Part shown: positions 867 through 11,580 of the stretch, piece after piece
How the letters are laid out: each line of letters opens with the position of its first letter
How positions within the stretch are numbered: position 1 is the stretch's first letter
Sequence record: NC_052656.1
From: Escherichia phage anhysbys
Reading direction: 5' to 3' (one strand)
DNA: 64,000 nt
Notes under the pieces: generated by a model
The model's input: the letters and a program-made list of their open reading frames with translations, nothing else
The model's database searches: none
What the model was told of the DNA's origin: nothing
Position numbers and translations under genes: made by a program

Positions 867-1127
867 TTACTCCGCAATTTGAGCCATGAGATCACGCAGT
901 TCGGTAAAACCGCCTACGTATGTTACCTCCCCGTTCACTTCAGACAGAATTTGTGGAAATGTGCGTGGAGGAACTCCGGTAAGATCAACAACTGTTTTAG
1001 TCATTGATTCTAAATCATAGTCTTGATCAAGACTTAAATATTCAAACTGTTTATTGCGCATGGTTAATAGTTGTTTTGACATTTCGCAAAATTGACAGTT
1101 AGGTTTACCAAAAATTACAAATTCCAT
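867..1127 (-). CDS. glutaredoxin/NrdH-like redoxin
   Basis: 86 aa with N-terminal CQFC (CxxC) active-site motif; thioredoxin-fold size; same module as nrdAB. Confidence 0.75.
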   Translation of the reverse strand: MEFVIFGKPNCQFCEMSKQLLTMRNKQFEYLSLDQDYDLESMTKTVVDLTGVPPRTFPQILSEVNGEVTYVGGFTELRDLMAQIAE

Positions 1128-1969
1128 TACCTCTCCTTATTAAGTAATACTGCTAAAGACTGTTCAATACCTTTATTTAAATCTGATTTTGTAAGATAGT
1201 GACTGGTTACTAATTGTGACTTCACCGGACGTGCTGCTGGAGCATTATAGGTTGAAGCTGATACCGCCGATATCTTAACAGGTTCTGGCATCTGTGTCAA
1301 GATCTTTTCCGCAAACTCCGCCCAAGAAATAAAATGGCTTCCTGCAAAATGGTAAGTCTTAACAGACCTTGACCAACCTGTTTTTAATACTTCAAAAATA
1401 GCTTCTGCTAAATCTGGAGCATATGTTGGACAAGAGAACTGATCAGCAACAACAATAAAATCACGTTGTCCATCATTATAGCGAGACAACATGGTTTTTA
1501 GAAAGTTATTTCCAAATTCGCTATATACCGAGGCTGTTCGAATAATATATGCATTTGGGTTAACTCCTCGCACCATTTTTTCACCGAGTTCTTTCGTATA
1601 CCCATAATTGTTTATTGGGTTAGGTGTAGTATCTTCAAAAATAGGATGAGAATAATTAAAAATATAATCTGTAGAAATATGCACAAAATCAATTTTAAGT
1701 TTGCTGCACACTGCCGCAATATTTGCAGGTCCATACGCATTAACAGCCAAAGCAGTAGCAAAATCATGTTCTGCTTTATCTACAGCCGTATAAGCAGCGC
1801 AGTTAATAACACCGTCTACATAATCTTCAACAATAGCGTTTCGCACAGCTTCAAAATTTGTAATATCTACACGTTCTTTAGGATAAATTAAAGATACATT
1901 CGAAGGAACCACTTTACGTAAAGCTTGTCCCAGTTGTCCATTACCACCTAATACCAGATATGTTAGCAT
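1127..1969 (-). CDS. rmlD: dTDP-4-dehydrorhamnose reductase-like (RmlD family)
   Basis: 280 aa; Rossmann GGNGQLG; NCAAYTAVDKAE, STDYIF, YGYTKELGE (YxxxK), NNFLKTML parallel E. coli RmlD as recalled from memory. Confidence 0.75.
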   Translation of the reverse strand: MLTYLVLGGNGQLGQALRKVVPSNVSLIYPKERVDITNFEAVRNAIVEDYVDGVINCAAYTAVDKAEHDFATALAVNAYGPANIAAVCSKLKIDFVHISTDYIFNYSHPIFEDTTPNPINNYGYTKELGEKMVRGVNPNAYIIRTASVYSEFGNNFLKTMLSRYNDGQRDFIVVADQFSCPTYAPDLAEAIFEVLKTGWSRSVKTYHFAGSHFISWAEFAEKILTQMPEPVKISAVSASTYNAPAARPVKSQLVTSHYLTKSDLNKGIEQSLAVLLNKER

Positions 1970-3161: not shown

Positions 3162-3370
3162 TATTCCTCCTTAATTATTTCAAACTTGGCAACACCATTT
3201 ACAATAATATGACCACAAGACATAACTCCTAGCCAAGGATCGCCGTTTTTCTTCAGGCGTTTACCGAATACATCACAAAAACCATTCTTCATTTCGGAGG
3301 CTTCATAAGAAGCCCCTTTGTCAAAAACGTCTTTGAATGTGTCGATTATACCAACACATCTCAAAATCAT
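3161..3370 (-). CDS. hypothetical protein (69 aa)
   Basis: ORF with ATG/TAA overlap to nrdB stop; no motif recognised. Confidence 0.45.
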   Translation of the reverse strand: MILRCVGIIDTFKDVFDKGASYEASEMKNGFCDVFGKRLKKNGDPWLGVMSCGHIIVNGVAKFEIIKEE

Positions 3371-4455
3371 TAGAAGTCAAGCTCCTCATCATCAGAGAGA
3401 TCTTTGTTAGCTGAATTCAATTTGTAATTAGTTAACTGAATCTCTTGGGCTGCTGACTGAATCAAATCAGGATTCAACCATTTTTCCATCCAAGCTAAAG
3501 GACTATGTTTAGGTGCTTTAAACTTGGCTTTCATTTTCAATCGACGATAAATAGGAGCAGCATTGAAATAAACCCACTGTTTAGACAATTCGGCGTTAAG
3601 ACCTACAATAAAACGACCTTCACTAAACAGGTAGTCACACCACTGTTCCTCTTGTTCAACAACAGTGTCGAGGATCAAAGTCAACTCTTCAATATTGTCT
3701 TCGTAAATTTTACGCCAAATTGGGTCATGCATCAATGCATCAATTACAGCATAATCCATCTTAACATGCAAGATTTCATCTAGCATAATTTTCTGGATCA
3801 GCTTACAAGCCCCAACAAACAATTGTTGTTCTGCCATAGCAAAAGTAGCAGAGAAGGAAGATATAAACTGAATACCTTCTAATCCAATCAGGGCTACCAT
3901 CCCTTTAAGAATCAGCAATCGAAGTTCATCGTTAGCTTCAATCAATCCTAGAGCATACTTATGACCAGCTTCTTCCAACTGACCCATGATATCAGCAATG
4001 ATACCCATACGATTGAAAATTTTATCATTAATCATAATCTGATTGATGACTTCAATTGGATCTGGAGTACATTGACGGATTATTTCAGAATACGTTAACG
4101 CATGGAGAACTTCCATTTCACTCTGCTTCATCATCATAGCACAGGCTTCATTGTTACTCAAGAATGGAGAGAACAAAGTGATGATTGATTTTGCAAGAGA
4201 ATCATTTTCCCATTGGAACGATAAGTTTTTAATCATAACATCATAGTTGTTTTTAGAACAAGCTACGAAATCTTTACGTGTCTGATCCAAGTTAACTTCG
4301 TTTTCATCCCAATCTTGTGCTTTTTGAAGTTTGTAGAGTTTGTGCATTTCTGGATAAGTTACGTTAACAGAATCAAAGATCCCTAATTGCTCCCCCAAAA
4401 ATACTGGATATTTTCCTGTTTTGTAAACTTCGTTGTGTAAATTAATTGCTGCCAT
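3370..4455 (-). CDS. nrdB: ribonucleotide reductase class Ia small subunit (NrdB)
   Basis: 361 aa, ferritin-like helical protein directly downstream of nrdA; typical size and architecture; uninterrupted (no intron). Confidence 0.85.
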   Translation of the reverse strand: MAAINLHNEVYKTGKYPVFLGEQLGIFDSVNVTYPEMHKLYKLQKAQDWDENEVNLDQTRKDFVACSKNNYDVMIKNLSFQWENDSLAKSIITLFSPFLSNNEACAMMMKQSEMEVLHALTYSEIIRQCTPDPIEVINQIMINDKIFNRMGIIADIMGQLEEAGHKYALGLIEANDELRLLILKGMVALIGLEGIQFISSFSATFAMAEQQLFVGACKLIQKIMLDEILHVKMDYAVIDALMHDPIWRKIYEDNIEELTLILDTVVEQEEQWCDYLFSEGRFIVGLNAELSKQWVYFNAAPIYRRLKMKAKFKAPKHSPLAWMEKWLNPDLIQSAAQEIQLTNYKLNSANKDLSDDEELDF

Positions 4456-4499: not shown

Positions 4500-6740
4500 T
4501 CACATCTTGCAAGCTTCACAACCACCATCAGAATCTTCTTGTGCTAAAGAGTCTGCTGATTTTGTTCTACTATTAAGGTAATACAACGACTTACCACCCA
4601 GTCTAGCAAAATTCAGAATAAACTGCATCTCAGCTTTCACTGATAAACGTCCACCTACCAATTTAGAATAATCTAGCCAAGAATCACAAGAAATTCCTTG
4701 GTCCGTAAACTTGGTAAAGATACCATACATTTCTGCAAGGTCTTTAGCAGGAGTGTCCCAGGCGGACTGGTAGAACATTTTCAGTTTTTCGTAGTCTGGA
4801 ACAATAAATAATACACTACCTTTCTGACTTTGTTTATACATAATAGTATCACGAACAGGATACAGAGAGTTAGTAGTATTGCTTACCAAACTGCTGGACT
4901 CATTAGGTGCGATAGCAGCCAAGACACTGTTACGGATACCACCTTGTTCAATGATTTCAGCACGTAAGCCTTCCCAATCCATTTTAAGATCAAAATTACC
5001 GATACTATCTACTGTTTTAGCATAAGTGTCAATTGGTAGCCAACCTTGAGGCCATTTGGTCTTATCGATCCATTCCGCATTACCTTTTTCCTTAGCCAGA
5101 CGCAGAGAGGCTTTTGCCAACCAAAAGTAATGACGTTCTGCAAGTTCATGCATTAATTTTTTAGCATAAGCATCTGAATAATTTACAAAATTACTTGCCA
5201 AGTAATGTGCTAAGTTTGTAATACCTACACCAATAGATCTACGTGCTTTAGCAGTTATTTCGTTATGTTTAAATGGATAATCCATTGTTTCAATAACGTT
5301 GTCAATTGTCAATACAGTGTAGTATGCAACATCCTCATATTCTTCAGGTAAGACACGACCAGCAACAATAGAAGATAAGAAGCATAAAGCCAATTCTTGA
5401 TCTTCTGTATTCTCACCAGTAAAGAGATCCGGCATACTGTGGAAAGCTTTAGTTGGTAAGAAGATCTCTTGACACAGGTTTGATTGATACACCGTATCCA
5501 GGAAAGGTGTATGGTTGTTAACGTTGTCCGCAAAGAACATGTAAATACGTCCTGTTTCTGCACGTTGAACAATAATCTCTGTCAGAAGATCACGAGCCTT
5601 AACAAATTTTTTCTTAATGCGACGACGGCTTACTTTGTCATAAACTGCATCAAACTCTTCTTCACTTTTATACAAAGCTTCATAAAGTTCAGGAGCATCA
5701 TCACAACTAACTAACATCCAATCTTCGTTTTTTGCTGCTCGACGCAAGAACGAACGGTTAACAACAATAGAATAATCCAGTTTGTCTACTCGTTTATCTA
5801 TAGGTGTTGTTGGATTCTTCAGTCGAATCAGATCGTCGAAGTCTGGTTCAAGTATGGTAAAGGTAACTGTAGCACTACCTCCACGGCTTGCTTGCTTCGA
5901 AGCTCCAACACTATCTTCCATCCATTTCAGATACGGAAGAAGACCACCATGAATAATACGATTATTCTTAACACCTTGACCTGTGGCACGAGTTTGAAGA
6001 TTAACACCAATACCTGCGTTATTCAACGTATACTCATGAGCTAAGTAATTAGCAATGGCTAAAGACTCTGCTGTGTCATCTGCACGGAATAAACAACAAG
6101 ACGCACTTCCTTTGATTGGAGTTCGTAGAGTTGTCAGATATGGTGATGGCAGATTAATCTTAAGATCGCTAACATAAGTATACAGTTTTTTAATATCTTC
6201 TATACGGCGTTCTTTTGGTTGGATCTCCATAACCTTCATTGCGATACCAATGAAAAGAAACTGTGGAGACTCATGCACCACATCGTTTACTGCATCTCGG
6301 ATAAGATATTTATCCACCATCTGACGTAAAACAGAATAGCCATAAGTTAGATTTTTATTATGCTTTACAATCTTACCAATTTCTTTGATCTCTTCATCAG
6401 TATAATCCATTTTAGCCCAATGTCCACGTTCTACCATATCATGATAAAAGGTATTCAGTGAAGGGATACTGTGGTATCCCCCATGAGCCTGTTTGTAAAT
6501 CATACCCAGAAGAAGTCTTCCTGCCATATCACTGTAAGCTTGTGTTTTCTTGTCAATACACGCTGCAATCATTGCTTTATGCAGATCACGTGTAGACACA
6601 CCGTCATAACACCGCTTCACAGCTTCTAATTCAATTTCAGACCAGTTTAGTTTACCTGCTGCAAATTCAGACCACTTGCGAAGTTTTTCTGGATTAAACT
6701 CCTCTATCTTACCGTTAGATTTAGTTACAAAACGAATCAA
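4500..6740 (-). CDS. nrdA: ribonucleotide reductase class Ia large subunit (NrdA)
   Basis: 746 aa; active-site region SNLCQEI, C-terminal Cys pair (CEAC), size matches NrdA. Confidence 0.9.
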   Translation of the reverse strand: MIRFVTKSNGKIEEFNPEKLRKWSEFAAGKLNWSEIELEAVKRCYDGVSTRDLHKAMIAACIDKKTQAYSDMAGRLLLGMIYKQAHGGYHSIPSLNTFYHDMVERGHWAKMDYTDEEIKEIGKIVKHNKNLTYGYSVLRQMVDKYLIRDAVNDVVHESPQFLFIGIAMKVMEIQPKERRIEDIKKLYTYVSDLKINLPSPYLTTLRTPIKGSASCCLFRADDTAESLAIANYLAHEYTLNNAGIGVNLQTRATGQGVKNNRIIHGGLLPYLKWMEDSVGASKQASRGGSATVTFTILEPDFDDLIRLKNPTTPIDKRVDKLDYSIVVNRSFLRRAAKNEDWMLVSCDDAPELYEALYKSEEEFDAVYDKVSRRRIKKKFVKARDLLTEIIVQRAETGRIYMFFADNVNNHTPFLDTVYQSNLCQEIFLPTKAFHSMPDLFTGENTEDQELALCFLSSIVAGRVLPEEYEDVAYYTVLTIDNVIETMDYPFKHNEITAKARRSIGVGITNLAHYLASNFVNYSDAYAKKLMHELAERHYFWLAKASLRLAKEKGNAEWIDKTKWPQGWLPIDTYAKTVDSIGNFDLKMDWEGLRAEIIEQGGIRNSVLAAIAPNESSSLVSNTTNSLYPVRDTIMYKQSQKGSVLFIVPDYEKLKMFYQSAWDTPAKDLAEMYGIFTKFTDQGISCDSWLDYSKLVGGRLSVKAEMQFILNFARLGGKSLYYLNSRTKSADSLAQEDSDGGCEACKM

Positions 6741-6756: not shown

Positions 6757-6999
6757 TTAATGCATATTCAAAACATCTACATCATAACCGAACTTCATTT
6801 CATTAAAAAGTCCATTAGCATATAGAAAACCTTCAAAATGAGTTATGTCATCAAACCCTTTTGCTTTTGCTCGACGGTCTGCTTCTTGTCTTTTAGGAGA
6901 TAAACGTTTTGAAGTGTCTAGAATTACAGTTACATTACAACCAACAGTTTCATCAAAATAGACTTCGATTTCACAGCCTTCATATTTATTATCAGTCAT
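6757..6999 (-). CDS. hypothetical protein
   Basis: ORF 6757-7011; start placed at the second ATG (6999), which has a GAGGG Shine-Dalgarno. Confidence 0.45.
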   Translation of the reverse strand: MTDNKYEGCEIEVYFDETVGCNVTVILDTSKRLSPKRQEADRRAKAKGFDDITHFEGFLYANGLFNEMKFGYDVDVLNMH

Positions 7000-7007
7000 T
7001 GTCCCTC

Positions 7008-7418
7008 TCATTGATTAGTATCATCTGCTTTCGCAGGATCATAAGAGTTACCGAAATCATCCATCTTAATATGTGACGCACCCCAACCTGTAAATTCTTC
7101 ATCACCAAAATGAAAAATATCGTTTTCTTGATAGATTCGTTTAAAACCACAATTAGGTGAAACAGGGAAAGTGAAAAGCGTTGTATTTGCAAACACTACT
7201 CGCTTATCGTTATTGCTTCGGATATTCACATTACGCTCAACAGAATAGTGTGAATCTTCAGCCATACCCAGCATTACAAGCGACGCTCTAATAACAGCAT
7301 TTTGTTTCTCGTGTGGGATATTGCCATTGTGTTTATTTGATTCTAGTTTCCAGATAGGGGTAGACATTACAGTAGACATGCTTACGGTAGCCCAAGTTGT
7401 AGTATTTACTAATGACAT
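7008..7418 (-). CDS. hypothetical protein
   Basis: ORF-track start at 7451 is a GTG inside a hairpin; ATG at 7418 has AAGGAG 5 nt upstream. Confidence 0.45.
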   Translation of the reverse strand: MSLVNTTTWATVSMSTVMSTPIWKLESNKHNGNIPHEKQNAVIRASLVMLGMAEDSHYSVERNVNIRSNNDKRVVFANTTLFTFPVSPNCGFKRIYQENDIFHFGDEEFTGWGASHIKMDDFGNSYDPAKADDTNQ

Positions 7419-7470
7419 ATTTTCTCCTTCATTTTGAATGGGAGGACTCACCTCCTCCCAGTATTGTGCT

Positions 7471-7500
7471 ATATTATACTAAAACTAATACTAAAGTCAA
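7471..7500 (-). promoter_or_regulatory. sigma70-like promoter (TTGACT-16-TATAAT) on minus strand
   Basis: reverse complement of 7495-7500 is TTGACT and of 7473-7478 is TATAAT; followed by 5'UTR hairpin GGGAGGA/TCCTCCC. Confidence 0.5.
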
Positions 7501-7516
7501 TAATTATTTAAACAGA

Positions 7517-8515
7517 TCACCATTTAGTATGATTTGTTAAAAGTTGACGATGTTGAATCCAGCCTTTGAAATTGCCAGACCAAAACTTACCATTACGATC
7601 TACATGGGTAATACCTGGTTCCCAAGAGTTAAAATCCCAAGGAGCATTGATAAACAAATCTTCAAAACAGTTCTCCCCATATTGTTCGCATGTTTCTTGC
7701 ATTGGGGTGGCTTGATGTTCAAACGGAGAAGCATGAACCTTGCGCCCAGTCAGCAAACGACCATAGATATCTAAAGCTTTATCTTTAGTTGCATTCAAAC
7801 GACGATAGCTAACCTGTGCACAACACGAAGCTGAAATAGCTTTGGCTTCTTCCAAAGTAAGCACAACAACTTCTCCAGATTCATCTTGAACATAGTATCC
7901 ACCAAAAACAAAATGATCGTCACCTTCTGTGCCAATATTATCATAGAAATGGTCTACATAAGGTGTGTGCCATTGCCCTGGTTTCAGCACTTCTGGTGTA
8001 GATTCTTCATACTCTTTGTGCATCTCTTTAGCCAAAGCTTCGATAGTAGGATCGGCTTCTTTGTCATCACGTAGCCACCAGAAATTTTCATATTCTGTTG
8101 CTGTCAGAACTGTTTTAATTCGTTGGAAAGGTTCCAGAAGACGGTTTGCAACTTGTTTGTGGTACCCTGCCAAAGAGAATTCTTCTGCAAAACGTGCTGC
8201 ACTAAGCGCGGCAAGATCCCACCACTCTTGAGCAGTATAACCTGCATCAATAAGAGCATCATGGTCAACACCTTTGTCCTGCATACCAGGTTGGTTAGCC
8301 CCAAAACGATAAGGACGAGCAGGCTGATTTCGAACCATTTCGATCAGTGTTTTAACAGGTATAGCACGGCTAGAAGCAGCATTACGACTGAACAGGCGGT
8401 GAGTCATCAGTTCTGAATGAATAATACGTGGATATTCAAGTTCGAAAGTTACAATCTCTTTTCCGTCTTCAGTGATGGAATGCGCAATAATACTAGCCGA
8501 AATCTGTTTTGTCAT
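7517..8515 (-). CDS. thyX: flavin-dependent thymidylate synthase-like (ThyX family)
   Basis: 332 aa; THRLFSRNAASSRA matches the ThyX signature RHRx7S (cf. RHRIASYNELSGRY) but with Thr replacing the first Arg. Confidence 0.6.
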   Translation of the reverse strand: MTKQISASIIAHSITEDGKEIVTFELEYPRIIHSELMTHRLFSRNAASSRAIPVKTLIEMVRNQPARPYRFGANQPGMQDKGVDHDALIDAGYTAQEWWDLAALSAARFAEEFSLAGYHKQVANRLLEPFQRIKTVLTATEYENFWWLRDDKEADPTIEALAKEMHKEYEESTPEVLKPGQWHTPYVDHFYDNIGTEGDDHFVFGGYYVQDESGEVVVLTLEEAKAISASCCAQVSYRRLNATKDKALDIYGRLLTGRKVHASPFEHQATPMQETCEQYGENCFEDLFINAPWDFNSWEPGITHVDRNGKFWSGNFKGWIQHRQLLTNHTKW

Positions 8516-8524
8516 TTTTTCTCC

Positions 8525-9133
8525 TTAGTTTTTAAAATTGTTCAAAGTGTTAAAAACATCCAAACATGTTAGCCACTGATCTTCTAAACCTGTGATCACA
8601 ACATTTGGTTTTTTCTTTAGTTCTTCTAGATGGTTATCTTTATAAGGCGTATTAAAATATATTTTAACCACTTCATCTGGAAAATATAGTAGGTTATCAG
8701 CCCTGTCATCTATTGCTATATCACAAGGCAATAAGTATTTTTCTTTCGTAGCAAAAAAGCCGTTGCCAGATCCTTTGCTAAAATCAATCGTATCTAATGT
8801 TCTTAAAACATGCTTATGTTTAGAACTTAAGTGACCACCTTTTGTCACACTTGCGATCAAAAGATTGCTACCTTTCCTTGAAACATACTTTAAGAAATCT
8901 GGCATACCTGGAACAAAACCCATTGTATCATAGAGATGAGGATTATCCAGAAATCCGTAAGGATCTATATTGAACTCCTCCCTGAAACCAGGAAAGTAGT
9001 TGGTAAGATCATAGTCTGCATTTTTTGTGAATGTGTCTATCTTAACACCAAGTCCACTAATCTTATTCAACCATTCTAACCAAGCAACATCTAATGGAGC
9101 CACAACTAAATCCCAATCACATACTATCTGCAT
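8525..9133 (-). CDS. HAD-superfamily 5'(3')-deoxyribonucleotidase-like
   Basis: N-terminal DxD (VCDWDLV) and C-terminal IAIDDRADN resemble the NT5C/HAD motifs. Confidence 0.5.
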   Translation of the reverse strand: MQIVCDWDLVVAPLDVAWLEWLNKISGLGVKIDTFTKNADYDLTNYFPGFREEFNIDPYGFLDNPHLYDTMGFVPGMPDFLKYVSRKGSNLLIASVTKGGHLSSKHKHVLRTLDTIDFSKGSGNGFFATKEKYLLPCDIAIDDRADNLLYFPDEVVKIYFNTPYKDNHLEELKKKPNVVITGLEDQWLTCLDVFNTLNNFKN

Positions 9134-9149: not shown

Positions 9150-9180
9150 TTTAGTATAGTTATCTTATACTAACTTTCAA
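9150..9180 (-). promoter_or_regulatory. candidate promoter (TTGAAA-16-TATACT) on minus strand
   Basis: reverse complement of 9175-9180 is TTGAAA, of 9153-9158 is TATACT; very short leader before the 9133 start, so uncertain. Confidence 0.35.
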
Positions 9181-9745
9181 TTTCCTGCAATAGGATTTTG
9201 ACTATTTGTTTACGGCGTTTTGCTACTGTGCTTTCAGGTTCTATTTTACGCTTCTTCAGCCATGCTTTATCTTTCTTAGCTCTGCACAAAGCTATCGCTT
9301 CTTTTTCAGCTTTCGCTTCTTCAAAAGATATACCTTGTTTATCTGCATAAGCAAGAATAGAGTTGCACAATTTACAAACCATTCGCAAATCTTCTTCTTT
9401 CACATAGATTAAACGGAAAACAAAAAGAGGAATATCATCAAAACATTGAAGTTGTTTTGCTGCGTGAATATGATCCACTTGGAAGTCTTTCATTCCTCCT
9501 CTATGTCCACATATTTCGCACTCACAATTCCAAACTTGTTTTGGTTTTCCAGTTTTCTTGTCTATCATCACATTGCCGTCTTTATCTACTCGATCAACTT
9601 TAAAACGCCTTGCATTGATAACCTTAATTTTATTAGGGTGTCTCATCCATGCTTTTCTAAAACATCCCCTAAGATAAGTATAAAATTCAGCTTGTGTTTT
9701 CCAGGGTGTTCCTTCACCCCACATTATTTTTGGTTCACCTGCCAA
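9170..9745 (-). CDS. HNH endonuclease (free-standing, homing-endonuclease-like)
   Basis: 191 aa; CECEICGH...DHIH...CKLCN = CxxC / DH-x-H / CxxC-N arrangement of the HNH fold. Confidence 0.6.
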   Translation of the reverse strand: MAGEPKIMWGEGTPWKTQAEFYTYLRGCFRKAWMRHPNKIKVINARRFKVDRVDKDGNVMIDKKTGKPKQVWNCECEICGHRGGMKDFQVDHIHAAKQLQCFDDIPLFVFRLIYVKEEDLRMVCKLCNSILAYADKQGISFEEAKAEKEAIALCRAKKDKAWLKKRKIEPESTVAKRRKQIVKILLQEIES

Positions 9746-10620: not shown

Positions 10621-11580
10621 TTAGATTCCAATAATAGTTGCTGCTCGTTTATCTTTGGATCTGGTGTTTGCTCTACTACGTGACAAACCTCCACAAGATT
10701 CACAACGAATGATATCGAAAGAACTTACCGCAGTGTGGTATTGCTTACCAGTAACAACGTGAACATGATCACTGCCGCAACGAGAACAACGGACTTTCTC
10801 ATCTGGGTAATAAGCGGATAAGTTAGGATGCTGTGGAATCCACGGAAGGATTTTCATATACAAATCACGAAGTGAAACAACATCACCATCATTGTAAATC
10901 TGCATACGTTCAAAAGCATCACGATCACCTTCACAACATGCTTTCCATAAAGGGAACCCCTCGTTATCCAGTTTTTCACTTTCTGTTTCAAAATACGCTC
11001 CCATCTCTTTAAGAGAATTGGAAGGAAGTGCAAACTGTTTCTTAGCTGCCTTCAAGGTATCAACAACTACATAGTTAGAAGGTGGAGCCATATCATGATA
11101 TGCGAAGCGTTGGTTAATGTATGCACGGTCAAACTTGTACCCATTGTGAGCCACAACAACATCAGCTTCATTCAGAAGATTCCAAAGATCTTGGCAAAGT
11201 TCCCAATCATCTGTATGATCGATATCGAAAAGAGGATAAGAAGATAAATTCTTACCTTCTACTTCACCTGTATACAAATCAGCAGAAGAGTAAGATAACA
11301 AATAACCCCTACGAATTACCTGGTCTGGAGAAATGAAGGCTTTGAATCGACGGAAAGTATATGCAATCTCTGGTGCAGTTTCAACATCAATAATTTTAAT
11401 AACTGGTTGTTTCTTTTTAACTGGCTCTTGTTTACTTGCACCGAAACGTGCAAGAAAATCATTTACTGTGCTTTTTCTTGTTGGACTACCTAAAACAATT
11501 GCTGCAATATTGCGAGAAGACATACCCTCTGCACTCATACTAAGGATATCTGCTTTCTGCTCTTCTGTTAATCTGCTCAC
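10621..11580 (-). CDS. DEDD-type 3'-5' exonuclease with N-terminal HTH and C-terminal zinc ribbon
   Basis: IIDVETAPE (Exo I DxE), VVVAHNGYKFDRAYI (Exo II), YNDGDVVSLRDLY (Exo III); CSRCGS...CESCGG zinc ribbon. Confidence 0.5.
   Translation of the reverse strand: MSRLTEEQKADILSMSAEGMSSRNIAAIVLGSPTRKSTVNDFLARFGASKQEPVKKKQPVIKIIDVETAPEIAYTFRRFKAFISPDQVIRRGYLLSYSSADLYTGEVEGKNLSSYPLFDIDHTDDWELCQDLWNLLNEADVVVAHNGYKFDRAYINQRFAYHDMAPPSNYVVVDTLKAAKKQFALPSNSLKEMGAYFETESEKLDNEGFPLWKACCEGDRDAFERMQIYNDGDVVSLRDLYMKILPWIPQHPNLSAYYPDEKVRCSRCGSDHVHVVTGKQYHTAVSSFDIIRCESCGGLSRSRANTRSKDKRAATIIGI

Follow-up and report, generated by a model that had tools for sequence, protein, structure and literature searches.

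ThyX, the flavin-dependent thymidylate synthase, is a flavoenzyme of unusual mechanism and a target for antimicrobials. Canonical ThyX is a homotetramer whose active sites are shared by three subunits; it binds flavin adenine dinucleotide (FAD) and oxidises NAD(P)H, and its chemistry yields tetrahydrofolate rather than dihydrofolate. Current mechanisms give explicit roles to R78 (at FADH-) and to Tyr91 (as general acid), in the numbering of the Thermotoga maritima chain, for which the sequence and the +12 tag offset were confirmed against 1KQ4. R78 is a conserved arginine that stabilises FADH-, its guanidinium group being directed toward N1/C2=O of the reduced isoalloxazine (PMC11940539), Ser88 and Tyr91 have been described as 'strictly conserved' in ThyX, and Tyr91, acidified by Arg90, has been proposed as the general acid (PMC11940539; PMC8316439). 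The Y91A substitution made carbinolamine consumption more than 100-fold slower, and R174 activates the substrate deoxyuridylate (dUMP) (PMC8316439). The present analysis concerns a ThyX-like gene of Escherichia phage anhysbys, located at positions 7517..8515 (minus strand) of a stretch of 64,000 nucleotides from record NC_052656.1, referred to below as the window. Sequence comparisons make it very probable that its 332-residue product has a circularly permuted ThyX fold and architecture.

The open reading frame (ORF) has an ATG start and a stop codon at 7517-7519, and is the sole long one at this position in the ORF listing. A first-pass annotation had presented its product as a ThyX-like protein that is longer than typical ThyX and has lost the first Arg of the RHR signature, and these three statements were all borne out. 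The Pfam model Thy1 (PF02511) matched residues 22-175 above its threshold (35 bits, E 1.6e-8, cutoff 24.8), covering profile positions 59-191 only, and PHROG 85 ('thymidylate synthase') was matched with 368 bits. The peptide ELMTHRLFSRNAASSRAIP holds T38 H39 R40 ... S48 S49 R50, so that THRx7S (T38-H39-R40-x7-S48) stands in place of the ThyX signature RHRx7S. The whole segment, T38-H39-R40-L-F-S-R-N45-A-A-S48-S49-R50 (8366..8404, minus strand), is a variant of RHRx7S-x-R and is followed by A51 at the position of canonical Tyr91. HMMER and hhalign agreed in pairing T38-H39-R40 with T. maritima R78-H79-R80, S48 with S88 and R50 with R90; the motif match is therefore homologous and not a chance pattern. 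Conservation was counted among 150 representatives of clusters at 50% identity, with residue pairing taken from the HMMER and hhalign alignments. Thr was found at position 38 in 137 of 144 representatives and is thus a family trait, not a local mutation. A phmmer search of the PDB with the single protein gave nothing relevant, the match to T. maritima ThyX being obtained with the family profile. As for length, the native T. maritima chain of 220 aa and the M. tuberculosis chain of about 258 aa mark the range of solved ThyX structures; the extra length of the phage protein is explained by a rearranged ThyX order together with added N- and C-terminal elements.

The rearrangement was apparent from several types of alignment. 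The HMMER profile of the family produced three matches to T. maritima ThyX, their order being swapped: chain positions 32-72, comprising alpha1-alpha2 and the H-E-T-P-F-E-H loop, corresponded to profile positions 217-259, near the C-terminus, and positions 73-102 and 167-211 corresponded to profile positions 26-55 and 132-176, respectively. Likewise, hhalign comparison with a single canonical profile, derived from 60 ThyX sequences of Thermotogota, paired query residues 226-277 with T. maritima 20-69 (E 2.6e-6) and residues 21-175 with 61-200 (E 1.8e-5). The classical test for circular permutation is to align a protein with two tandem copies of the canonical profile. With such a profile, one continuous alignment was obtained between query residues 15-330 and positions 55-361 (E 2e-9, probability 96%), in which the strands at query 202-219 land on canonical beta1-beta2. 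With residues 177-268 placed in silico ahead of residues 20-176, Thy1 of Pfam was matched with 47 bits instead of 35, and the coverage of the profile was extended from 59-191 to 14-191.

Five segments can be delineated along the protein, all encoded on the minus strand. Residues 1-19 (8459..8515) form an added N-terminal beta-strand (E6-14, with an invariant S13) according to predicted secondary structure and conservation; it is predicted to pair with the equivalent of canonical beta3, and no counterpart of this segment was found by hhalign in the canonical ThyX profile. Residues 20-176 (7988..8458) constitute the ThyX core, equivalent to T. maritima 60-200 on the basis of hhalign, Pfam and NCBIfam matches; they include the THR..S..R motif, R125 (=R147) and the block N144-F-W-W-L-R149 (8069..8086), which the alignments equate with T. 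maritima N169...R174 (N144 in 148/149 representatives, R149 in 150/150). A linker (residues 177-199, 7919..7987) lies between the two homologous blocks and leads from the canonical C-terminus to the relocated module; it bears the invariant motif W182-H183-x-P185-Y186 (H183 150/150, P185 149/150). Residues 200-268 (7712..7918) are the relocated module, the equivalent of the canonical N-terminus (T. maritima 1-59; beta1-beta2-alpha1-alpha2 and the His53 loop), as indicated by HMMER, hhalign, the tandem profile and the Pfam re-ordering. In this module, C-terminal to the core, the canonical loop H53-E-T-P-F-E-H59 reads H261-A-S-P-F-E-H267. Finally, residues 269-332 (7520..7711) are a family-specific C-terminal extension, modelled with high confidence as mostly short beta-strands, for which hhalign gave no reliable counterpart in canonical ThyX. 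Its conserved pattern is W..G.TH.D..G..WSGNF.GWIQ.RQL, R323 being found in 133/133 representatives, Q321 in 128/133 and N315 in 124/133.

A structural model was generated with AlphaFold2 (AF2) from an alignment of 58 sequences (mean predicted local distance difference test value, pLDDT, 93.5; predicted template modelling score, pTM, 0.91). Residues 202-267 were predicted to fold as strand, strand, helix, helix and short helix, an order which we take to be that of the canonical N-terminal module of 1O26. Fold matches of the model were PBCV-1 ThyX (4fzb, score 12.5), M. tuberculosis ThyX (2af6, 12.2), H. pylori ThyX (3ah5, 12.1), T. maritima ThyX (5chp, 10.9) and the UMP/dUMP methylase PolB (4p5a, 10.8); as modelled, the protein thus has the ThyX fold. 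In these matches just 135-159 residues aligned sequentially and the target-normalised template modelling (TM) score was about 0.5, so part of the ThyX chain is left unmatched in sequence order.

Apparent permutations can also be produced by loss and gain. A ThyX with a canonical core could have lost its N-terminal helices and independently acquired a superficially similar C-terminal domain. The separate profile matches are modest (E 1e-5 to 1e-6), Pfam misses the canonical beta1-beta2 strands of the re-ordered construct, its match beginning at profile position 14, and the strand at residues 6-14, near the N-terminus, could itself correspond to beta2. However, the relocated block keeps the canonical order of motifs, ...S..AxVS(F/Y)... 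followed by ...H-x-(S/T)-P-F-E-H, with S228, S236, H261, E266 and H267 invariant or nearly so; the alignment with the tandem profile runs without a break and exceeds the significance of either piece about 1000-fold; the predicted beta-beta-alpha-alpha-short helix order agrees; and, as expected of an active-site element, the H261 site is a target of inteins (see below). Independent gain is consequently regarded as unlikely, and a genuine circular permutation is retained as the explanation.

Most of the residues lining the ThyX active site have equivalents in the phage family. In the core these are H39 (T. maritima H79; 144/144 representatives), N45 (N85; 139/144), S48 (S88; 143/145), R50 (R90; 145/145), R125 (R147; 146/148), N144 (N169) and R149 (R174), and in the relocated module S236 (S30; 150/150), H261 (H53; 150/150), E266 (E58) and H267 (H59), the last two being (near-)invariant. 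Other positions are replaced: besides T38 for R78, A51 takes the place of Y91 family-wide (145/145), T140 that of R165 (146/149) and E35 that of Q75 (131/144), and at position 40, which corresponds to R80, Arg is found in just 113/144 representatives (~78%). Judging from these alignments, the family keeps the set of residues for dUMP binding and activation (S48, R50, R125, R149) and the His53 loop, yet it is naturally 'R78T' and 'Y91A'. Six residues, R30, H183, R238, N315, Q321 and R323, are invariant specifically in this family and are sequence-based candidates for taking over the roles of R78 and Tyr91. The first-pass annotation had overlooked the permuted architecture, the added N- and C-terminal pieces and the change of Tyr91 to Ala51, all of which are fixed in a large phage family.

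Long members of the family bear inteins with HNH or LAGLIDADG endonuclease domains (e.g. proteins P0128, P0143, P0205, P0152 and P0227 of our set, all from outside the window). Five insertion sites were recognised: after H33, after R40/L42, between S48 and S49, after LRxH (R149-x-H151) and directly after H261. All five lie within active-site motifs. Inteins characteristically sit at conserved catalytic sites and are typical of essential enzymes, and an intein at the relocated H261 loop fits the view that this loop is part of the active site.

It is likely that the protein acts as a thymidylate synthase, as a circularly permuted phage ThyX. By analogy, the fold and most catalytic residues being those of ThyX, the enzyme probably works like ThyX. 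It would be a homo-oligomeric flavoprotein methylating dUMP to thymidylate (dTMP) with reduced flavin and methylene-tetrahydrofolate; S48, R50 and R125 would hold dUMP in place, R149 would activate it, and H261 would stack on the flavin or folate. The roles of R78 and Tyr91 may have passed to other family-invariant residues (candidates are R30, H183, R238 and R323), or the chemistry may be tuned differently. Such an enzyme would sustain the supply of thymidine triphosphate (dTTP) for an AT-rich phage genome with no need of a dihydrofolate reductase (DHFR), and the lack of DHFR in the genome (see below) fits ThyX-type chemistry because the product of the latter is tetrahydrofolate, not dihydrofolate. 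The phage genome has a GC content of about 39% (table in PMC7552041), and extra dTTP is plausibly useful to it.

Several observations weigh against this assignment. The host has its own ThyA, and a thymidylate synthase role of the phage gene is thus not forced by necessity. The NCBIfam equivalog model for thyX (TIGR02170) was matched at 31.6 bits only, against a cutoff of 87.9, and over profile positions 60-208 only. The stabiliser of FADH-, R78 (PMC11940539), is Thr in the phage family, and the proposed general acid, Tyr91, is Ala. Finally, no paper describing a permuted ThyX, nor any biochemical or genetic test of a family member, was found in open-access literature text.

The genomic environment was considered with the help of close relatives, the window region being 98.5-99.5% identical to Phapecoctavirus genomes (phAPEC8-like E. 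coli myophages, subfamily Stephanstirmvirinae). In phAPEC8_ev052 (98.5% identical), the counterpart gene is annotated 'putative thymidylate synthase', and its same-strand neighbours are a 'deoxyribonucleotidase', two small ORFs, class Ia ribonucleotide reductase (RNR) alpha and beta, rmlBACD and glutaredoxin. In the window, the gene immediately upstream (8525..9133, minus strand; 202 aa) is a 5'(3')-deoxyribonucleotidase-like gene of the NT5C family (Pfam NT5C, 26.1 bits against a cutoff of 24.8), annotated 'deoxyribonucleotidase' in phAPEC8_ev052. It is translationally coupled to the ThyX-like gene: its TAA stop codon (8525-8527) overlaps the AAGGAG ribosome-binding site read from the sequence at 8521-8526 (minus), 5 nt upstream of the ThyX-like ATG. 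The pair is kept in Justusliebigvirus VEcB, a phage of a sister genus (72% identity), where the order is thymidine kinase, NT5C-like gene, ThyX-like gene, RNR and rmlBACD. Downstream, at 0.8 kb, the window encodes class Ia RNR alpha (4500..6740, minus), followed by beta (3370..4455, minus), both recognised as ORFs and from the annotation of phAPEC8_ev052. Proximity to genes of deoxynucleotide supply was also seen in more distant carriers: nrdA is 3 kb from the ThyX-like gene in ICP1, RNR and glutaredoxin are directly downstream of it in Pseudomonas phage VCM, and a dCTP deaminase gene is 1.5 kb upstream in one Gamaleyavirus phage.

The full annotation of phAPEC8_ev052 includes class Ia and class III RNR, glutaredoxin, the ThyX-like gene, the deoxyribonucleotidase and a MazG-like protein, but no ThyA, DHFR, dUTPase or dCMP deaminase. 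In agreement with this, tblastn with E. coli ThyA, FolA and Dut and with T. maritima ThyX returned nothing below E 0.03 in phAPEC8_ev052 or the window; the ThyA query is a valid one, recovering 4423 phage records including T4 td. The ThyX-like gene is the sole thymidylate synthase candidate in the genome.

Some further features of this neighbourhood were recorded. An HNH endonuclease gene (window 9170-9745, minus; 10854-11417 of locus L008) occupies the position of the thymidine kinase gene of VEcB. Directly after the ThyX-like stop lies a near-consensus sigma70-like promoter, TTGACT-16 nt-TATAAT (11/12; 7500-7473, minus), followed, before the next ORF (start 7418/7451) and within window 7437-7500 (minus), by a GC-rich hairpin (GGGAGG...CCTCCC). 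Two small ORFs (7008-7451 and 6757-7011, minus; PHROGs 15711 and 15807) separate the ThyX-like gene from RNR alpha, one of which is labelled 'minor head protein' in phAPEC8_ev052, an unlikely function given its position. In Pseudomonas phage VCM, a 114-aa ORF directly downstream of the ThyX-like gene (5938-6282 of locus L006) is labelled 'thymidylate synthase' (phrog_3506) but matched no Pfam model; either an accessory subunit or a wrong annotation is conceivable.

The distribution of the family was analysed in viral and cellular sequence data. By tblastn, the protein was found in 1033 of 50,697 phage records, the match covering at least 80% of its length in 992, and the carriers include rV5-like phages, ICP1, Pakpunavirus-type Pseudomonas phages, N4-like Gamaleyavirus, phiCbK-like phages, roseophage DSS3phi2 and Flavobacterium phages. 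A HMMER search gave at least 5000 matches at E<=1e-3, and 1634 clusters (50% identity) at E<=1e-30. Two family-specific peptide patterns drawn from a 10-sequence alignment were fitted by only 31 loci across 185,579 species-representative prokaryotic genomes, mostly on phage-sized contigs of metagenome-assembled genomes; its neighbours in Burkholderia paludis and Komagataeibacter xylinus are integrase, exonuclease, SbcCD-like and MazG genes, a prophage context. On these figures a cellular housekeeping gene was rejected and the family is considered viral, the permuted form being characteristic of lytic phages of Gram-negative bacteria. Colinear ThyX was found in 2682 phage records, mostly from actinophages and cyanophages; the permuted form thus constitutes a second viral ThyX lineage of substantial size. 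Three 'Campylobacter phage' records, B15, A110a and C5 (MG065650, MG065689 and MG065659), were matched at 99%, 72% and 53% identity, respectively. They look like Stephanstirmvirinae or Vequintavirus genomes, and their Campylobacter host labels are doubtful.

The first-pass annotation had left open whether the gene encodes a thymidylate synthase or an enzyme making a modified pyrimidine, and had pointed to the rmlCD genes nearby. Both genes are indeed present, rmlC at 1963-2529 and rmlD at 1127-1969 (both minus), about 5 kb from the ThyX-like gene and on the same strand. A ThyX-derived enzyme could release another C5-modified deoxyuridylate, e.g. 5-hydroxymethyl-dUMP, if the exocyclic-methylene intermediate were hydrated instead of reduced, and the product could be rhamnosylated in Stephanstirmvirinae with the thymidine-diphosphate (dTDP)-rhamnose of the rml genes. 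The residues for flavin-hydroquinone stabilisation and acid catalysis are gone (R78 to T, Y91 to A), the coupled NT5C-like deoxynucleotidase could deplete dTMP, and Olsen et al. speculated that the dTDP-rhamnose of phapecoctaviruses and phi92-like phages may glycosylate hydroxymethylated nucleotides (PMC7552041). However, the T38/A51 architecture was found in 1033 phage records and RmlC in only 167, so that this trait is not linked to rhamnose, and a rhamnose-gene link as a property of the family was rejected. In the window, moreover, rmlA and rmlB are absent (in phAPEC8_ev052 both lie between rmlC and a 108-aa ORF, found at 2539-2865 in the window); the phage thus encodes an incomplete dTDP-rhamnose pathway, which would need RmlA/RmlB-type enzymes of the host. 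No glycosyltransferase or 5-hydroxymethyl-dUMP kinase is annotated in the genome. Of the set for thymidine hypermodification, a homologue of the ThyA-type dUMP hydroxymethylase was not detected by tblastn, and the 5-hydroxymethyldeoxyuridine (5-hmdU) DNA kinase and the transferases are not among the annotated genes either.

Evidence from related phages points in the same direction. Maffei et al. found Vequintavirinae (rV5-like) and phi92-like phages, the latter carrying both rml genes and a ThyX-like gene, 'exceptionally susceptible' to restriction-modification despite putative dTDP-glycosylation machinery, in a tested set that had no Phapecoctavirus (PMC8594841); plain 5-hmdU would not necessarily block restriction. 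In VEcB, a thymidine kinase gene is two genes upstream of the ThyX-like gene, with the NT5C-like gene alone between them, and thymidine nucleotides are apparently wanted. Synthesis of a modified pyrimidine in general is consequently given little probability. Its more elaborate form, in which a permuted ThyX (R78T, Y91A) skips the reductive step, releases a non-thymine C5-substituted dUMP and has it decorated with rhamnose in Stephanstirmvirinae, is highly improbable, although it would, if true, mean that modified phage DNA can arise by a flavin-dependent route based on ThyX. Of the two functions first envisaged, thymidylate synthase is thus the favoured one, on account of the lack of any other candidate and of DHFR and of the synteny with deoxynucleotide genes; modified-pyrimidine synthesis found no support, considering the rarity of RmlC and the restriction-sensitive relatives, and the functional link with the neighbouring rml genes appears weak.

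Methylation of another nucleotide is decidedly doubtful. The substrate could be uridylate (UMP), as for PolB in polyoxin biosynthesis, or deoxycytidylate (dCMP), with contacts altered by the changes of Q75 to E35, Glu occupying this position in 131/144 representatives, and of R78 to T38. Against this, R149, the equivalent of the R174 that deprotonates uracil N3, is invariant, and the phosphate-binding S48, R50 and R125 are also retained; the neighbours are genes of deoxynucleotide supply (RNR, dCTP deaminase, thymidine kinase); and full replacement of cytosine by 5-methylcytosine would clash with the reported restriction sensitivity. A catalytically dead regulator or decoy binding dUMP or flavin, to which the loss of canonical R78 and Y91 might point, is extremely improbable in view of the full set of catalytic-type residues kept under very strong purifying selection in more than 1600 clusters (E < 1e-30) and of the inteins, typical of essential enzymes, in family members. 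A pseudogene or inactive remnant was rejected in view of the conservation pattern and the intein sites.

The window gene itself is an ordinary, already annotated member of its family and most likely a dTMP-supply gene. The wider interest lies with the clade, present in about 1000 sequenced phages, including model or therapy-relevant ones such as rV5, ICP1, phAPEC8, Pakpunavirus and N4-like phages. Its members are labelled inconsistently, either 'hypothetical protein' or 'thymidylate synthase', because annotation models see just half of the permuted protein. A large natural clade lacking R78 and Tyr91, with a permuted chain, amounts to an experiment of nature on the indispensable features of the ThyX active site; the loss of these residues and the permutation should interest ThyX enzymologists, and the biological role is likely conventional.

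Comparison with known systems helps to situate the family. The ThyA-family enzymes of phages (T4 Td, dCMP and dUMP hydroxymethylases) are likewise phage-encoded and catalyse C5 one-carbon transfer to pyrimidine nucleotides, and small changes in their active sites switch product or substrate. Their fold and mechanism are unrelated, and the ThyA type, found in 4423 other phage records, was detected by tblastn neither in the anhysbys relative nor in the window. PolB of Streptomyces cacaoi (PDB 4P5A), a UMP/dUMP C5-methylase, differs from the phage protein by its canonical segment order, its place in a bacterial secondary-metabolite pathway and its low identity (19%). Another viral enzyme, chlorovirus PBCV-1 ThyX A674R (PDB 4FZB/2CFA), is colinear with cellular ThyX, and 135 of its residues superpose sequentially with the phage protein. 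Compared with canonical ThyX (T. maritima TM0449, PDB 1O26/1KQ4; PF02511; TIGR02170), the phage protein is about 110 residues longer (N-terminal strand, WHxPY linker and C-terminal extension) and carries the canonical N-terminal ~59 residues after the core. It departs from canonical ThyX in the RHR arginine, in Tyr91, in colinear order and in equivalog score; the replacements are Thr for R78, Ala for Tyr91 and Thr for R165, and R80 is ~78% conserved. It shares with canonical ThyX the equivalents of H53, E58, H59, H79, N85, S88, R90, R147, N169 and R174, a neighbourhood of nucleotide-metabolism genes and a genome without a DHFR partner.

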